From sequence record PZ452588.1: a stretch of DNA of 64,000 nt, one strand, 5' to 3'. This document shows, piece after piece, positions 5,967 to 63,142 of the stretch. The number at the start of each line of letters is the position of its first letter. Position 1 is the first letter of the stretch. The position numbers were made by a program, and so were the translations under genes. The DNA comes from a phage. The notes below the pieces were generated by a model. It made no database searches and was not told the DNA's origin. It saw only the letters and a list, made by a program, of their open reading frames with translations.

Positions 5967-6066
5967 AGTAAACGTTTAATACATCAATCATTAAAACGAT
6001 TGGGAATATACTCAAAACTACTAGTATTATAACTACATTCCATATAGCTTTAACAATCTTTTTCAT
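5953..6066 (-). CDS. Small membrane peptide (37 aa)
   Basis: MKKIVKAIWNVVIILVVLSIFPIVLMIDVLNVYFGFM preceded by GGAGG SD; the track ORF 5953-6201 runs into the promoter and is over-extended. Confidence 0.4.
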   Translation of the reverse strand: MKKIVKAIWNVVIILVVLSIFPIVLMIDVLNVYFGFM

Positions 6067-6089
6067 TTTCTGTTCCTCCGTAGTTGATA

Positions 6090-6128
6090 GGGTAATAGTA
6101 CCACGGAAGAACAGTCTTGTAAACAACT
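6090..6128 (-). promoter_or_regulatory. Early sigma70-type promoter
   Basis: Minus strand GTTTAC (fwd 6119-6124), 18-nt spacer, TACTAT (fwd 6095-6100), conserved leader CAACTACGGAGGAACAGAAAATG. Confidence 0.55.
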
Positions 6129-6309
6129 TTTTTAAAAATATTCGTAATAAATGTGAATACCAACTACTACCGCTGAAACCTGTGCAACCCACCACGCGCA
6201 AGCAATAAGTACAGAATTCAAAATTTTCATAATAACCTCATCACAAAAGTAAATGTTAAACAAATTAATGGAATACTAATTAACCAAACAAAACACCACC
6301 ATAATGAAC

Positions 6310-6573
6310 TCATAGTTCAATCTCAGCGATTTTCATTTCATTATTGTTAATAGCATTTTTAAGACTATCCGAAAGAATTACATTCCAGTGGTCATTCATA
6401 TGACCATTAACTAAGCGTGTAATTTCTTCGGGAGTTGAAAAATAAGGCTGATCAGACTCCCAATGCGATAATCCTAAGCGAGTATAAATCATGCCTTCAT
6501 CATCGCTAGAATATTCAACTGACACAAACTCATCAGTTATTTTATGTTTAGCGTAATAAAATTTAAATTTCAT
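6310..6573 (-). CDS. Hypothetical protein (87 aa)
   Basis: Start at ATG after SD GGAG (leader GGATTTGGAGAATAAAATG shared with two other genes). Confidence 0.5.
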   Translation of the reverse strand: MKFKFYYAKHKITDEFVSVEYSSDDEGMIYTRLGLSHWESDQPYFSTPEEITRLVNGHMNDHWNVILSDSLKNAINNNEMKIAEIEL

Positions 6574-6605
6574 TTTATTCTCCAAATCCGTATCAGTAGT
6601 TGATA

Positions 6606-6644
6606 GTTGTATAGTACCACGGTCCTTGTGGTATGTAAACTGTT
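6606..6644 (-). promoter_or_regulatory. Early sigma70-type promoter
   Basis: Minus strand GTTTAC (fwd 6635-6640) and TACTAT (fwd 6611-6616) with A/T-rich upstream tract. Confidence 0.55.
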
Positions 6645-6658
6645 TTGTGAAAAAATTT

Positions 6659-7216
6659 TTAAATGGAAAGATACCATCCGTTGTAGTTGCTTTTTCTTAC
6701 AACCTTACGAAGGTCTTCTCTGTCACCGATGAACTTCGGAGTGTACTGGATGACACCTGGATGAATTTCTTTAGTGTTGAATATAATTATACAGTCAGCG
6801 ACTTGATGATTTAGAATGGGCCCTAGATTTATTCCAGAACCATATGGATACTCTCCGCTGCATCCTGTTGTTACCGAAATCCAACGTGAGTCAGTTTGAT
6901 GTGTCTTAACTTCTACGCGAAGCCCACAGTATTTTGGATGCGCCAATACATCCCATGCATATGTGTACGGATCATCGACATCTTCTTGACCTTTATTAAC
7001 ATACCCGCTTAACCAATCTGCTACAAAAAACTCTGCGTACACAGCGATACGACATCTTTCGATAACTTCTGCCTTATCCTGGTTCGGGTTTTGTTTTAAA
7101 GAGTATCTTGCTGTATCAGCAATTTTGACCTTCATTTCATTGGTTAAATCGCTGTTCGATAGAGTAAATGTCGGAATCTGAAATAGTCTCTGCAAACCCG
7201 GATTCGTTTTCTGCAT
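6659..7216 (-). CDS. denB: Probable endonuclease IV DenB (185 aa)
   Basis: 185-aa ORF immediately downstream of rIIB, matching T4 denB size and position; sequence not independently recalled. Confidence 0.6.
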   Translation of the reverse strand: MQKTNPGLQRLFQIPTFTLSNSDLTNEMKVKIADTARYSLKQNPNQDKAEVIERCRIAVYAEFFVADWLSGYVNKGQEDVDDPYTYAWDVLAHPKYCGLRVEVKTHQTDSRWISVTTGCSGEYPYGSGINLGPILNHQVADCIIIFNTKEIHPGVIQYTPKFIGDREDLRKVVRKSNYNGWYLSI

Positions 7217-57962: not shown

Positions 57963-58931
57963 TTATTTCAGAAGAGTAACCTCAGCGATTTCTTCCCAAC
58001 CGTTTTTGTCGGTCATAATAAAGTCAGCAAGATAAAGCGCAGTACGCAGTGAAACATTGCGTAAACGATTAACATTGACTTTCATCCATGATAATGCTTT
58101 ATAAGTTTCTTCATCAGAAAGACCACGCTTTTGCATCATGTCGGTTGAAAGAATAACATCTTCAACCCTGACCATAATTTCTTCATTAGTGTGAACACCC
58201 AAATCCAAATAAACTGAGCGGGACACTAATGCTTGTAAATGTGGAGCAAGTTTAGTACCACGGTCTAATTCGCGGTCAATGTCAACGTTTGTGATAAAAA
58301 CGATCGTTCCTTTAAATTCAAACTCACGCTCAATGCCTTTTTCTTCTAAGTAAGAAGACGCAGTGCTCCAGCAGACTTTACGGGTCTCTCCGGTGTCCAG
58401 AGCAGCTTTCAGAAGATTAAGAATGTCCATATCAGAGAAAACATCCACATCATCAATCAAAAGGACAGAATTCTCTTCACGATTATTCCAGAGCTGTTCA
58501 TAAAGACCGATACCGGAGATTTTACCGTTAATGCTTTTATATTCAATGTATCCATTATCATTTGCTTTATTTAAAGCTTTATCTAAAGAATACGTTTTAC
58601 CAATACCCGCCGCACCAGAGATAATTAATGAACGAATGTTTCCGTTAATAATACCATTCGTCATCATTCCCATAACATTAAATCTTTTATTAATGCGGGT
58701 TTTCATATCTTCATATGATTCTTTAACTTCTTCAACTTTTACACCATCATATGAAATGTCTGATTTGTAAACCCAAACACCGCGACGTTTACCGTCAATT
58801 TCAACAAAAACTTTACCATCTCCTTGTGCATCTACCGGAGCATTATCTGGGAACCATTCACCTAAGAGCTCAAAAGTTCCAGAGATTTCTTTACCAAAGT
58901 AGATACCCTTATTGATAGTTACAGTTTTCAT
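57963..58931 (-). CDS. P-loop NTPase (AAA-like ATPase, about 322 aa)
   Basis: Walker A GAAGIGKT and Walker B VLLIDDVD; start at ATG after GGAG SD. Confidence 0.6.
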   Translation of the reverse strand: MKTVTINKGIYFGKEISGTFELLGEWFPDNAPVDAQGDGKVFVEIDGKRRGVWVYKSDISYDGVKVEEVKESYEDMKTRINKRFNVMGMMTNGIINGNIRSLIISGAAGIGKTYSLDKALNKANDNGYIEYKSINGKISGIGLYEQLWNNREENSVLLIDDVDVFSDMDILNLLKAALDTGETRKVCWSTASSYLEEKGIEREFEFKGTIVFITNVDIDRELDRGTKLAPHLQALVSRSVYLDLGVHTNEEIMVRVEDVILSTDMMQKRGLSDEETYKALSWMKVNVNRLRNVSLRTALYLADFIMTDKNGWEEIAEVTLLK

Positions 58932-58959
58932 TTTATTCTCCAAATCCGTATCAGTTGAT

Positions 58960-58998
58960 AGTTGTATAGTACCATAAAGCTTTATGCTTGTAAACAGT
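58960..58998 (-). promoter_or_regulatory. Early sigma70-type promoter
   Basis: Minus strand GTTTAC (fwd 58990-58995) and TACTAT (fwd 58966-58971); leader matches modules at 6606 and 32405. Confidence 0.6.
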
Positions 58999-59025
58999 TT
59001 TGTGAAAAAATTTTTGAAATAAAAA

Positions 59026-59045
59026 GGGGGACCTCTAGGGCCCCC
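59026..59045 (-). terminator. Hairpin + U-run downstream of the ART-like gene
   Basis: GGGGGACC-TCTA-GGGCCCCC stem-loop; minus-strand readout followed by TTTTTATTTC. Confidence 0.55.
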
Positions 59046-59054
59046 TTTATGCTT

Positions 59055-59540
59055 TTATTCCATTTCTATTATATGCATGTTCTTTTTGCTATCAAAATAT
59101 ATGTTTTTAACTGTTAACTCCGAATTAATTGGCAATAAAAACTCTCTTTCATAATCTACCATACAAAGGTTATCATAAAGCTTGTTAAGCTTATCATCGT
59201 CAGTTTGGCCAGATTCTTCAATTGCGATTAAATTTTCTAAAATGTCAATCATAGCAGTCGAATAGTCAAAAACGTTTGCATTTTTTAACACTACTAAAAC
59301 ATTAGTCATATAGCGTTCTGCAGCAAACGTTTCAGCTATATGAGACTCACTGCTAAAGGAAGTTATTCTTTTAAATTTGATTCTCCTATTAACTTCAAAC
59401 TTATAAGATAGTACTTCCTCTATTGTAAGTCCTCTAAAAAGCACGTCTTTAATCTCAAGTTTGTCTTTAATGTAATCATTAACACGCTTATGATTAAAAT
59501 CATTAATTTTGTTGCCAAGGCATTTCATTAAAATATGCAT
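59055..59540 (-). CDS. Predicted ADP-ribosyltransferase-like protein (Mod-family paralog, about 161 aa)
   Basis: R-S-E-type motifs LFRG, SFSSESHIAETFA and EREFLLP aligning with ModA/ModB in this window; start set at first ATG (track ORF starts at TTG). Confidence 0.5.
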   Translation of the reverse strand: MHILMKCLGNKINDFNHKRVNDYIKDKLEIKDVLFRGLTIEEVLSYKFEVNRRIKFKRITSFSSESHIAETFAAERYMTNVLVVLKNANVFDYSTAMIDILENLIAIEESGQTDDDKLNKLYDNLCMVDYEREFLLPINSELTVKNIYFDSKKNMHIIEME

Positions 59541-59584
59541 TGTGTTTCTCTTCAATTTTTTAAAGAACAATTAATTAACTACAA

Positions 59585-59620
59585 ATATATTATAATATGC
59601 TTTATGATAGAAGTAAACAA
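59585..59620 (-). promoter_or_regulatory. Early sigma70-type promoter for the ART-like gene
   Basis: Minus strand GTTTAC (fwd 59613-59618), 18-nt spacer, TATAAT (fwd 59589-59594). Confidence 0.5.
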
Positions 59621-59647
59621 CTTTGTGAAAAATTTTTGAAATAAAAA

Positions 59648-59665
59648 GGGAGCCCGAAGGCTCCC
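59648..59665 (-). terminator. C(UUCG)G tetraloop hairpin + U-run closing the upstream operon
   Basis: GGGAGCC-CGAA-GGCTCCC stem-loop; minus-strand readout followed by TTTTTATTTC. Confidence 0.6.
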
Positions 59666-59667
59666 TA

Positions 59668-60681
59668 TCATTTATAATAACTTCGGTGGTTTTCAAGATA
59701 CACCTTCTCAAGGAAGTCATCCCAGAAACCCATGTCTACTTTTTGCTGCATACCGTTCTTAGAAGCTTCAGTAGATGCTGCTTCTACTTGATCGACCACA
59801 TCTTCCAAAAACTCTTGAACTGTTTTAAATGGATGCTTACCCAACTTCACGTCGAGAATAAATGGAGCATCTTGGAGTGGATAAACCAAGTCACCAGTTT
59901 TGTAAATTTCCAATAGTTGGAGTCCACCACGACAAGCATGACTCAGAGCTTTCCAGTCAATACCTTCATTGGCTTCGGCCTTACGAGCACGTTCACCGTA
60001 TTCAGCATCAAGTTTATTCAAAGACTGCTTAAGCTCAATAAGAGAAAGCGTTGTCTGATATTTACGACCCAACACAGTGTAGAACGTTTGTGGACCTGTT
60101 TTCTCATGATTATGGAACACCCATTCACAGAATTCGTTTTCTGGAAGACGATGCTTAATATCTTCAACTTTAGTGCGACGCTGCTTAATAGAACCATCTT
60201 CTTGGTAATCAACCCATTGCTCAGGGATTTGATTAACTACTTTCAATACATCACGTAATGCAGCCAAACGAGAACCCTTGACACCGTATTTAGAAGCTTG
60301 CTTGCGGACATATCCTAAATATGATTTCATGTTAGTCGTATAAAAACGAGAACGGTTGTCTTGAATAAACTTCCACACATCAGGCAAATCTGATTTAACT
60401 ACTAGTTCAGGTGGAGTGTGAAGCATATCCAATGCTACGGTTTCACCATCTGCTGCTAATTTAAAGAAATACTTAAGACTGTATAGTTCATGGTCAATAT
60501 CATCTTTAGTGTTTTTAGATGATGTGTTGTTAGTGTTTTTACTCATGTGCTCTTTAACGTTTCCGATAAGAATATCACGAGCAGGAGGAACAAAGATTTC
60601 TTTAAAATCTACATCAGATTCTGGGGTAGAAGTTCCATAAAGATGACTACCAAAATAGCTTTTCATTACTGTTTTCATCAT
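59668..60681 (-). CDS. Predicted nucleotidyltransferase-fold protein (337 aa)
   Basis: N-terminal GS-x10-DxD signature (FGSHLYGTSTPESDVDF) and downstream VALDML acidic strand, typical of Pol-beta-like NTases; start overlaps upstream stop. Confidence 0.55.
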   Translation of the reverse strand: MMKTVMKSYFGSHLYGTSTPESDVDFKEIFVPPARDILIGNVKEHMSKNTNNTSSKNTKDDIDHELYSLKYFFKLAADGETVALDMLHTPPELVVKSDLPDVWKFIQDNRSRFYTTNMKSYLGYVRKQASKYGVKGSRLAALRDVLKVVNQIPEQWVDYQEDGSIKQRRTKVEDIKHRLPENEFCEWVFHNHEKTGPQTFYTVLGRKYQTTLSLIELKQSLNKLDAEYGERARKAEANEGIDWKALSHACRGGLQLLEIYKTGDLVYPLQDAPFILDVKLGKHPFKTVQEFLEDVVDQVEAASTEASKNGMQQKVDMGFWDDFLEKVYLENHRSYYK

Positions 60682-61139
60682 TCAGCCTTATATTCAATAA
60701 CAGGACATACTTTAGCTTTACGAGCTTTTAAAAATTCAACGATAACCGATTTCTTGGGTTGAATAGGAGGTAAACCTTTATACGCCCTATCAATATTTTC
60801 TACGTGTAAAGCATAATCCTTTTTCCATTTATAATCTTTATATTTTTCACGCAAATGTGCAGGAATAACAAATGAACCGATAATAAGTAAAACAACCAAA
60901 AGCGCAAGTATAAATGCTGATGGAAGCAAAGTCCATAAACTACCAAAAATAAGCCAACGCTGTAGGCTTTCTGCACAAATAATTGTTAGCCCTACGAGTA
61001 TAACACACCCAAAAATAGAAACGAAAAATGTAGGAATGGCAATAGACCAAAAATATGCGCATAGTGTCTTAGGTCGTTGCCATTCATCGTTAAACAATTT
61101 GAATAATTTATAGTGCCAAGAGTTTTCATTAATAATCAT
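60678..61139 (-). CDS. Membrane protein (153 aa, two predicted TM segments)
   Basis: Hydrophobic segments FVSIFGCVILVGLTIICA and ILALLVVLLIIGSFVI. Confidence 0.55.
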   Translation of the reverse strand: MIINENSWHYKLFKLFNDEWQRPKTLCAYFWSIAIPTFFVSIFGCVILVGLTIICAESLQRWLIFGSLWTLLPSAFILALLVVLLIIGSFVIPAHLREKYKDYKWKKDYALHVENIDRAYKGLPPIQPKKSVIVEFLKARKAKVCPVIEYKAE

Positions 61140-61141
61140 AA

Positions 61142-61663
61142 TTATCCTCTCATTGAAGGCGTAACAGTTGTTAAATACTTAATCATAGCTTCAGCTTCTG
61201 ATTTTGATAATGAAATTTCTCCATTGTTTTGACGAATAGAAATAAAATCCGGATGACGGTCACCACCAGCTTTTAAAACACACATATAAGTATCAACTTC
61301 ATCTTCAATATTTGAAATGATTGAAGCAGTTCCACATGAATGCGGTTTTTGATAAATCAATGCAGCTTTTCTTCCGCCATTTGACTGTTCATAAACTTTT
61401 AATACATCAAACAAATCACTTCTTTTATCAATAGCTAAAATGTTATTTTCATCTTCAATGTTAAATCCTTCGGATACTTCATAAAGTGTCACCCATAAAT
61501 CGCCAATATCAATAACAGCGTTCACTTTTCCATGACTTTCAAGAGCATGACAAATTTTCTTGATTTCGTCATAACTCATTTTAATAATATCATCTCCTTG
61601 AATAAGAAAGATGTCATTTTTAAATTCAACACGAATTAAACCACTTCCACTTGAAATAAACAT
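61142..61663 (-). CDS. Hypothetical protein (173 aa), paralog of the next ORF
   Basis: C-terminus KSEAEAMIKYLTTVTPSM aligns with KDEAIALKTYLDSVIPTM of ORF 61670-62224. Confidence 0.55.
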   Translation of the reverse strand: MFISSGSGLIRVEFKNDIFLIQGDDIIKMSYDEIKKICHALESHGKVNAVIDIGDLWVTLYEVSEGFNIEDENNILAIDKRSDLFDVLKVYEQSNGGRKAALIYQKPHSCGTASIISNIEDEVDTYMCVLKAGGDRHPDFISIRQNNGEISLSKSEAEAMIKYLTTVTPSMRG

Positions 61664-61669
61664 ATTTCC

Positions 61670-62224
61670 TCACTTTGAAATCATAGTTGGAATGACAGAA
61701 TCAAGATAAGTCTTTAGCGCAATAGCTTCGTCTTTGGTAAATGTGACAATATGTGCTCGAGAATCATCATTTTGGCGAACAAGTACGACATCGCCATCTT
61801 CATAAGAAGTCTTGACATCCAAAGTCGTAGTATAATTTGCAGCTACTGGATTAATAATGTTAGCACCGCGATCTTTAGCCCATTGAAGTTTAGCCTTTTC
61901 AGGTGTTTCGACTGTTTCAGATTCCAAGAATTCTTTCACCTTGGCAACGAATGTTGCCCAATTGTTAATAGAAAGACACATAAATTCAGTTTCAATATTA
62001 CCGCCGTAAAGGCCACGATAAAAACGAACTTGGAGGTCGTCTGTAATATTAGTTACACCGGTAACTCCTGAGGGAGCATAAGATAAAATCGCAGCCAGTT
62101 CCATAGGAAGAATAGTAATACTATCGTCTTCCTGCGTCAGAACGTATACATTACCGCGTTTTTCGATAACTAGGTCACCGAACAAATCAGTTGTTTCAAT
62201 TACAGCTTTCATATTATTTACCAA
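61670..62224 (-). CDS. Hypothetical protein (184 aa), paralog of the preceding ORF
   Basis: Shared C-terminal motif with ORF 61142-61663. Confidence 0.55.
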   Translation of the reverse strand: MVNNMKAVIETTDLFGDLVIEKRGNVYVLTQEDDSITILPMELAAILSYAPSGVTGVTNITDDLQVRFYRGLYGGNIETEFMCLSINNWATFVAKVKEFLESETVETPEKAKLQWAKDRGANIINPVAANYTTTLDVKTSYEDGDVVLVRQNDDSRAHIVTFTKDEAIALKTYLDSVIPTMISK

Positions 62225-62399
62225 TTAAAGTTTCAATATAAGAATCGAGATTTACTTTAGCTTCTTCCATAAGAGTTTTGTATTTAATCTTGTTGGCATG
62301 TCCGGAAAAAGCTGATTCATCAATAATTGTTGATGTATGAACAGCTTTACTATACGTCTCAATTAATTCTCTTAATTTAAAAGCCTGCTCACTTGTCAT
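62214..62399 (-). CDS. Hypothetical protein (61 aa)
   Basis: ORF with GAGGAG SD. Confidence 0.5.
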   Translation of the reverse strand: MTSEQAFKLRELIETYSKAVHTSTIIDESAFSGHANKIKYKTLMEEAKVNLDSYIETLIGK

Positions 62400-62527
62400 T
62401 ACATACTCCTCTGAATCATATCAATAATGTTATTCACCAAATTATAAGTAAACATTGGGTAATTATATTGAATCATTACATACACAACAAACAAAACTTT
62501 CATTCTCTTCTCCTTGACAGTTGACAA

Positions 62528-62563
62528 GATTACTATACCATAACCTTGCCAACTTGTAAACCG
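62528..62563 (-). promoter_or_regulatory. Early sigma70-type promoter heading the 62.4-59.7 kb operon
   Basis: Minus strand GTTTAC (fwd 62556-62561), 18-nt spacer, TATAGT (fwd 62532-62537). Confidence 0.5.
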
Positions 62564-62726
62564 TTAAATGTTGTTTTCAATAAAATTTTGAAGCTTTGTG
62601 TGAGCATCAACCATGATTTTCATTTCTTCCTTTGCGAAAGCTGTACCTCTTTCCCGAGAAGAACACTCATAGTCAGAAACTGCATTAGCATATTCTTCAA
62701 TTAGTTTCATTAAAAACATCTGCTTT

Positions 62727-62921
62727 TCAGTTTTCATTATTCCACCTAATCATTTCAAGATATTGAACTAACTTAGCTTTAGATTTGTCCAAATCCTTTT
62801 TAGCTGCTTCTATACCGTCGTATGAATATCCTTCACAATGCTCAACTGCTAATTGGTATGAATCTATTTCAATATCATGCGCTAATTTAATGATTTTTTC
62901 AAACTGTTCGCGTGTTAGCAT
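62727..62921 (-). CDS. Hypothetical protein (64 aa)
   Basis: ORF. Confidence 0.45.
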   Translation of the reverse strand: MLTREQFEKIIKLAHDIEIDSYQLAVEHCEGYSYDGIEAAKKDLDKSKAKLVQYLEMIRWNNEN

Positions 62922-62923
62922 AA

Positions 62924-63142
62924 TTAAACTCTCGTATTATGATCGATAATTTCATCAAGAAACATATCTAACGCTTCTAAAGCATTATCAACTTTAGCTT
63001 CAAGTTCTTCAATACCTGATAAGGCAAAGTTAATGCGTTCCTCATCTGCTTTACGAATTAAAGCTACCAATTCCTTAATTTTATCAGCTTGTTCGATACT
63101 AATCATTATTCCACCACATATGAAAGAGAGAATATTGCACAC
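62924..63142 (-). CDS. Hypothetical protein (up to 72 aa)
   Basis: ORF; start may be an internal Met. Confidence 0.45.

Follow-up and report, generated by a model that had tools for sequence, protein, structure and literature searches.

Two RlaP enzymes of Pseudomonas, described in a December 2025 preprint, extend RNA 3'-OH ends by one or two nucleoside monophosphates; any nucleoside triphosphate (NTP), and also dATP, can serve as donor, and Mn2+ is the preferred metal ion (PMC12776372). On a nicked tRNA mimic their preferred substrate is the 5' half, and they partially recover the aminoacylation of a tRNA that is short of one anticodon-loop nucleotide (PMC12776372). The authors of the preprint propose that RlaP works as an antidote to ribotoxins that remove a nucleotide once they have cut, for example RloC, which excises the wobble nucleotide (PMC2610378), and their discussion points out that the 3'-OH end of the RlaP product suits 5'-phosphate ligases such as Rnl1 (PMC12776372). 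The same RNA-repair prediction had been made in a 2021 survey of jumbo phages, where the distribution of RlaP mirrored that of RNA ligases (PMC7824862). NrdC.11 of T4 was assigned to the RlaP family PF10127 and falls into cluster 5 of the preprint's similarity network (PMC12776372). In this study, we analysed the gene unit ending in nrdC.11 in a 64,000-nt stretch of phage DNA (PZ452588.1), hereafter the window, to whose full length all coordinates refer; the unit lies at 59668-62563. By DNA comparison the window belongs to a Tequatrovirus, and its positions 59500-62700 are ~98% identical to RB18, MLF4, PhiZZ23 and similar phages. We consider it probable that the interval is one early transcription unit in the hyperplastic region between nrdC and rI of a T2/RB18-like Tequatrovirus, in which NrdC.11 would restore RNA ends and the open reading frames (ORFs) upstream of it would be cargo.

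The last protein of the unit (337 aa) is 100% identical to the T2 protein and 98% identical to T4 NrdC.11 (NP_049709), and its RB18 ortholog is labelled NrdC.11 nucleotidyltransferase in RefSeq. A preliminary description of this DNA, made from the letters alone, had placed a nucleotidyltransferase (NTase) after nrdC.11 and had left undecided whether T4 has an ortholog; by the RB18 and T4 annotation the NTase is nrdC.11 itself, and the T4 gene is its ortholog. Both the gene assignment and the family assignment are already known from databases and literature. In T4 and the other Straboviridae with an ortholog, the same gene stands upstream of nrdC.10 and is followed by the same terminator/promoter element. 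By tblastn, nrdC.11 is found in 1518 phage records covering Escherichia, Klebsiella, Aeromonas, Acinetobacter, Cronobacter, and Vibrio phages, with 30-70% identity in T4-like phages of the last five genera; a non-T4-like Rheinheimera phage was matched as well. A total of 3424 related clusters were found among 1.8 billion cluster representatives, 829 of them at E <= 1e-30 and nearly all of these as full-length matches. The T4 stretch from nrdC.11 to mobD.3 was dispensable in a genome-reduction study (PMC9825161), which is what one would expect of a gene with an accessory or counter-defence function. In many GenBank and UniRef records NrdC.11 goes under the name 'thioredoxin', apparently carried over from nrdC, and one names it 'HNH homing endonuclease'. 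The T2 mobD.4 label 'molybdopterin-guanine dinucleotide biosynthesis protein MobD' likewise looks like an error of name propagation.

NrdC.11 is a Pol-beta-fold NTase of the RlaP family, and its catalytic residues are intact and invariant. It scored 44.2 bits (E=2.5e-11) against PF10127, 'RNA repair pathway DNA polymerase beta family', which has a gathering cut-off of 23 bits, and the same family was matched by all 80 diverse relatives (35-55% identity) that were aligned for conservation. The GS-x10-DxD motif, read correctly in the preliminary description as the Pol-beta signature GS-x10-DVD, consists of G11-S12, ten residues, and D23-V24-D25. Across the 80 relatives G11, S12, S22, D23, D25, N57, D63, Y132, K244, H248, R251, P268, and K279 are invariant, and D85 is nearly so. 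In profile-profile comparison D63 lines up with the third Asp of canonical RlaP, so that all parts of the RlaP catalytic signature (hG[GS], [DE]x[DE], and a third carboxylate) are conserved in the NrdC.11 family, and G11, S12, D23, D25, and D63 are the predicted catalytic residues. An AlphaFold2 model built from the 80-relative alignment (predicted local distance difference test score 94.6, predicted template modelling score 0.84) has an NTase domain followed by helical domains. Foldseek matches of this model in the PDB, all at E >= 5e-3, indicate likeness of the general fold only, and include the 3c18 protein, kanamycin nucleotidyltransferase, HalB, AadA, LinB, and Tam41. PDB sequence searches with NrdC.11 and with the 80-sequence profile, in a copy that lacks the PfRlaP crystal structure, gave nothing relevant. 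The preliminary description had counted CD-NTases and minimal NTases among the users of this fold and had proposed a fold search for placing the protein in a subfamily. The NTase fold held, and the subfamily turned out to be RlaP rather than either of these: NrdC.11 gave no sequence or fold match to CD-NTase or cGAS-like models, no CD-NTase or cGAS-type enzyme was among the Foldseek matches, and no PADLOC defence model matched it.

Compared with the canonical RlaPs of Pseudomonas fluorescens and P. aeruginosa (PMC12776372), NrdC.11 has the same hG[GS]...DxD...D core and the same following helices. However, canonical RlaPs have ~250 residues, as compared to 337 in NrdC.11, and the profile-profile alignment with canonical 255-aa RlaPs covers residues 3-131 only (probability 93.8%). 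Unlike canonical RlaP, NrdC.11 contains a conserved KNTxxDxD insert before the third Asp; residues 155-209 form a five-stranded beta-rich insert, and the C-terminal domain, which is helical and carries the invariant K244, H248, and R251, gave no profile alignment. In the PfRlaP crystal structure an N-terminal NTase domain and a helical C-terminal domain enclose a cleft; in NrdC.11 the residues after the NTase core (132-337) did not align with canonical RlaP. An active HEPN RNase in this C-terminal helical bundle was considered and ruled out, as the Rx4-6H motif is missing. In the published similarity network NrdC.11 forms a cluster separate from canonical RlaP (PMC12776372).

To see in what company NrdC.11-type enzymes occur, we scanned one genome per prokaryotic species for full-length relatives; 156 were found, and 80 with a best-segment identity of 32-54% to the query were kept. 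Many of them lie on contigs of hundreds of kb to Mb, from Desulfobacterales, Nitrospirota, Alphaproteobacteria, and some archaea. The neighbours within four ORFs were clustered for 76 bacterial or archaeal loci, and the cluster representatives were scanned against Pfam. In 20 of the 76 loci a neighbour is of an RNA-repair type: canonical RlaP in 12, Pnkp in four, RtcB in four, and Ro60/TROVE in three. Therefore, the association with RNA-repair genes holds for the NrdC.11 branch and not only for canonical RlaPs. In the 12 loci with a canonical RlaP, this 255-aa protein (PF10127, E=3e-51 for the representative) is encoded directly downstream on the same strand. These tandem loci are as follows.

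L013, L027, L039, L042, L054, L058, L062, L063, L067, L079, L081, and L083: NrdC.11-type match at ~6001-6950, canonical RlaP as neighbour +1

In the 78 viral loci, by contrast with these cellular ones, the neighbours are only small hypothetical proteins of the hyperplastic region. As a separate observation, the 84-kb non-T4-like Rheinheimera phage Barba31A (locus L003, 2250-4900) encodes its RlaP homolog, gp061, two genes downstream of a CCA-adding enzyme, gp063.

RNA-end restoration alongside T4 Pnk and Rnl1, directed against tRNA-cutting host defences, is the most likely role to be proposed for NrdC.11 by analogy, because its cellular relatives adjoin RtcB, Pnkp, Ro60, and a second RlaP. NrdC.11 would act after the 3'-phosphatase step of T4 Pnk and before sealing by Rnl1, and would allow the repair of tRNAs that lose a nucleotide to a host anticodon nuclease of the RloC type. 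Such a step would add to the classical tRNA repair pathway by which T4 overcomes PrrC. The proposed role belongs to the same phage and the same conflict as that pathway, and a 3'-OH product would fit Rnl1. Healing and sealing by T4 Pnk and Rnl1 leave a lost nucleotide unreplaced, and its replacement is the step that NrdC.11 would add; the genes are not adjacent.

Several observations weigh against this assignment. Only the N-terminal ~130 residues of NrdC.11 align with canonical RlaP, and the other ~200 residues are specific to the subfamily, so that its substrate and product could differ from those of canonical RlaP. The RNA 3'-end activity ascribed to the NrdC.11 subfamily would be one transferred from the Pseudomonas enzymes, and a possible difference in substrate preference is the chief reservation about this transfer. 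The tandem pairing in 12 bacterial loci suggests that the two branches work together and are not redundant. RNA ligase or kinase genes next to nrdC.11 were sought in the 78 viral loci, and none was found; this absence matches the scattered layout of the T4 repair genes. Finally, a membrane protein is encoded at most five ORFs upstream of nrdC.11 in 40 of the 78 viral loci, and this may reflect a loose functional link between the two.

As an extension of RNA-end restoration, NrdC.11-type enzymes might constitute a functionally distinct RlaP branch, which we regard as an unlikely possibility. The beta-rich insert and the C-terminal domain would then set the RNA target or the choice of nucleotide, the enzyme of T-even phages would supply a third tRNA-repair step against nucleotide-excising anticodon nucleases such as RloC, and the PUR/Whirly-like MobD.1-type proteins encoded upstream might be RNA-binding accessories. 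A distinct function of this branch would explain its tandem arrangement with canonical RlaP in bacteria.

A different substrate altogether is also doubtful. NrdC.11 could nucleotidylate a protein or a small molecule, for example by AMPylating a host HEPN-type RNase toxin in the manner of MNT antitoxins, or by modifying a metabolite as aminoglycoside nucleotidyltransferases do. Kanamycin nucleotidyltransferase is indeed among the proteins that share its general fold. On the other side, the Pseudomonas RlaPs modified neither DNA nor protein (PMC12776372), and NrdC.11 does not have the make-up of an MNT-HEPN minimal NTase antitoxin, that is, an NTase of ~100-150 aa together with a HEPN gene carrying Rx4-6H.

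Repair or completion of tRNA 3'-CCA ends by a partial CCA-adding activity, rather than repair of the anticodon loop, would protect phage or host tRNAs against toxins that trim 3' ends. We judge this improbable, even though any RNA 3'-OH can receive one or two nucleotides from RlaPs, which are hardly selective among NTPs (PMC12776372). The homolog in the Rheinheimera phage, located two genes from a CCA-adding enzyme, also speaks for it. However, T4 depends on the CCA-adding enzyme of its host for tRNA maturation, an argument against a substitute encoded by the phage. Furthermore, the neighbours in bacteria are ligases, which are not needed for CCA repair, and canonical RlaP acted on the 5' half of a nicked tRNA mimic in preference to the acceptor end (PMC12776372).

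Every gene between 57.9 and 64 kb is on the minus strand, and the gene order along the transcript, according to the RB18 and T4 RefSeq annotation, is mobD.2, a 61-aa gene, mobD.1, RB32ORF097c, RB32ORF096c, nrdC.11, terminator, and nrdC.10. Six ORFs lie between promoter and terminator; adjacent ones overlap by up to 4 nt or are separated by up to 6 nt.

62532-62560 (-): predicted early (sigma-70-type) promoter upstream of mobD.2; GTTTACA-17-TGgTATAGT, 10/12 matches, with TGn extension
62399-62503 (-): mobD.2, 34 aa, function unassigned; RB18 and T4 annotation, phrog_3515
62214-62399 (-): DUF7438 protein, 61 aa; Pfam DUF7438, E=1.4e-15
61670-62212 (-): mobD.1, 180 aa, y05I family; Pfam T4_y05I_N E=1.4e-32 and T4_y05I_C E=2.4e-17, MobD.1 in the RB18 annotation
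61142-61663 (-): RB32ORF097c-like protein, 173 aa, mobD.1 paralog; N-terminal domain with PUR-alpha/Whirly-like fold
60678-61139 (-): RB32ORF096c-like membrane protein, 153 aa; hydropathy, phrog_944 'membrane protein'
59668-60681 (-): nrdC.11, 337 aa (336 from the second ATG), RlaP-family Pol-beta nucleotidyltransferase; Pfam PF10127
59647-59666 (-): intrinsic terminator hairpin directly after the nrdC.11 stop codon, first half of a promoter-early stem-loop (PeSL) element; AGGGAGCC-TTCG-GGCTCCCT, then a T-run
59589-59617 (-): next early promoter, second half of the PeSL element, upstream of an ADP-ribosyltransferase-like cassette; GTTTACT, 17 nt, TATAAT

A consensus promoter scan of this AT-rich region gave 27 sites, as compared to 23.3 expected from shuffled sequence, which is not significant alone. 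Because consensus matches are no commoner than in shuffled sequence, a promoter match by itself proves little. The mobD.2 promoter is intergenic, and it is nearly base-for-base the same in T4, T2, and RB18: the hexamers are invariant, and the spacer and leader carry no more than one to three substitutions. We accept it despite the weak scan because of this near identity at the same intergenic site. The terminator hairpin of nrdC.11 is likewise kept in T4, T2, and RB18, and RB69 has a hairpin of other sequence (GGGCC-TTCG-GGCCC) at the same place. Thus, the preliminary description of a sigma70-type promoter and a terminator bracketing a run of ORFs agrees with our results, with the number of ORFs, given there as five or six, being six. 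On the strength of conservation among these phages, the predicted promoter at 62532-62560 and the hairpin at 59647-59666 are both accepted as real regulatory elements. No convincing T4 middle promoter (MotA box) or late promoter (TATAAATA) turned up when the inside of the unit was scanned. In Rfam nothing scored above threshold, a sub-threshold STnc130 match over the terminator region (E=0.083, 31.8 bits against 55) being taken as chance, and PADLOC and NCBIfam scans of seven proteins gave nothing useful.

The gene directly upstream of nrdC.11 bears on the view, put forward in the preliminary description, that an NTase expressed with a membrane partner forms an early counter-defence or host-takeover module. 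Such a module would produce or intercept nucleotide second messengers, like CD-NTases or minimal NTases, and would act on CBASS, Pycsar, Thoeris, or retron defence. We consider it very unlikely, despite some features that fit: the Pol-beta NTase fold has an intact active site, the nrdC.11 start overlaps the membrane-protein stop by 4 nt (ATGA) under an early promoter common to both, and the membrane-protein family is found directly upstream in Tequatrovirus, Mosigvirus, and Dhakavirus relatives. The two transmembrane segments described earlier agree with the hydropathy, which is the only basis for them: a single hydrophobic stretch at residues 25-98, broken once by the polar ESLQRW, fits two long segments. 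In RB69 and relatives with a NrdC.11 at least 75% identical, the membrane protein is directly upstream with overlapping stop and start. Across the viral loci it is the immediate upstream neighbour of nrdC.11 in 12 of 78. However, it is absent from T4, where the homing endonuclease gene mobD (PMC2988022) occupies the slot, and T2 has other ORFs there. In Klebsiella phage KPV15 three ORFs separate it from nrdC.11, and an Erwinia jumbo phage encodes it with no RlaP in the vicinity. The T4, KPV15, and Erwinia phage arrangements, along with the 12 of 78 loci, rule out the membrane protein as an obligate partner of NrdC.11. A counter-defence role of NrdC.11 is a plausible part of the earlier proposal, whereas the module with a membrane partner is unsupported. 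De novo synthesis of short oligonucleotides like that of the Hailong NTase HalB, serving as decoy ligands that keep an abortive-infection channel closed, is the least credible alternative, as the likeness to HalB is one of generic NTase fold with no sequence-family link and the bacterial relatives are not beside HalA-like channels.

The five ORFs upstream of nrdC.11 are most plausibly cargo that was shuffled independently and shares one promoter, and not subunits of one machine, because each gene has its own distribution. The membrane protein is found in 906 phage records, ORF097c in 482, and the DUF7438 gene in 193, as compared to 1518 for NrdC.11, and nrdC.11 is the conserved anchor, the last and only widely conserved gene of the unit. 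T4, T2, RB69, and KPV15 each have a different gene content at this interval, in accordance with the hyperplastic character ascribed to the region earlier. T4 differs from the phage of the window in having the HNH homing endonuclease gene mobD, whereas ORF096c, ORF097c, and an extra DUF7438 gene are present here.

MobD.1 and ORF097c are 28% identical over their full length (E=1e-7), and both belong to the small y05I family (PF24449 and PF24448), with each of the two domains above its gathering threshold: 118.5 and 81.2 bits for ORF097c and 112.7 and 63.5 bits for MobD.1. The preliminary description was right about a pair of paralogs, but their likeness is not confined to a C-terminal motif, since both carry T4_y05I_N as well as T4_y05I_C. 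The family comprises ~50 clusters, all from T4-like coliphages. Its resemblance to the PUR-alpha/Whirly/PC4 fold, which binds single-stranded nucleic acid, is known here from the model fold, with no detectable sequence similarity; the C-terminal domain was modelled at low confidence, and a sequence search of the PDB with MobD.1 gave chance-level matches only. One further member, P0281, is a chimera whose N-terminal half is like T4 MobD.1 and whose C-terminal half is like ORF097c, which indicates recombination between the paralogs.

In T4 the annotation shows no counterpart of the 61-aa DUF7438 gene at this place. The gene is one of four near-tandem paralogs of ~60 aa on the minus strand, the others being mobD.2a (62564-62737), mobD.3 (62727-62921), and mobD.4 (62924-63127). 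The name 'helicase loader', which RefSeq and PHROG give to the 61-aa member, has no basis that we could see and is probably a propagated error; the RB69 counterpart is annotated as tk.1.

Downstream of nrdC.11 the mosaic organisation continues. PeSL elements are known from T4-like phages (PMC2839356, PMC4122927), and the element after nrdC.11 is a typical example in which we found no difference: a GC-rich stem-loop with T-run is followed by an early promoter within ~50 nt, here a second early promoter within 30 nt of the hairpin, and the element marks an indel boundary. A terminator with a following promoter of this kind would mediate gene shuffling. In the window and in T2, two PeSL copies with a common 35-nt core flank a 161-aa ORF without counterpart in T4 and RB18, and the single PeSL of T4 equals a left half from one of these copies fused to a right half from the other. 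This half-and-half pattern is the textbook signature of an insertion mediated by PeSL elements, and it lends support to reading the whole region as a mosaic.

The 161-aa ORF (59055-59540, minus strand), by which this phage and T2 differ from T4 in having an additional ADP-ribosyltransferase-like cassette downstream of nrdC.11, lies between nrdC.11 and nrdC.10, with the flanking elements at 59589-59666 and 58966-59045, and is equipped with an early promoter and a terminator of its own. Its PHROG match is phrog_832 'RNA polymerase ADP-ribosylase' (E=1.2e-23), and an R / S-x-S / E-x-E ADP-ribosyltransferase motif (VLFRGL, SFSSES, YEREF) was recognised by eye. At >=95% identity it occurs in 44 records only, including T2, SV76, and ACG-C40, and more distantly, at 25-33% identity, it is related to the ModB genes found in other T4-like phages. 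The next gene, nrdC.10 (57963-58943, minus strand), adjoins nrdC.11 in 32 of the 78 viral loci and encodes a protein of ~322 aa with a Walker-A P-loop (GAAGIGKT) and weak, sub-threshold matches to AAA and STAND NTPase families (E 1e-4 to 1e-3).

In summary, the idea that RlaP counters RloC has already been proposed by others (PMC12776372, PMC7824862), and the window adds no new kind of system. Our analysis corrects the identity of the gene, provides evidence that its neighbours are shuffled cargo, and shows that the NrdC.11 branch departs from canonical RlaP in the parts beyond the catalytic core and is encoded in tandem with a canonical RlaP in some bacteria. If NrdC.11 does restore excised nucleotides, it would be a third enzyme for the textbook heal-and-seal tRNA repair of T4, and would provide an answer, long proposed, to how phages might counter RloC-type defences.

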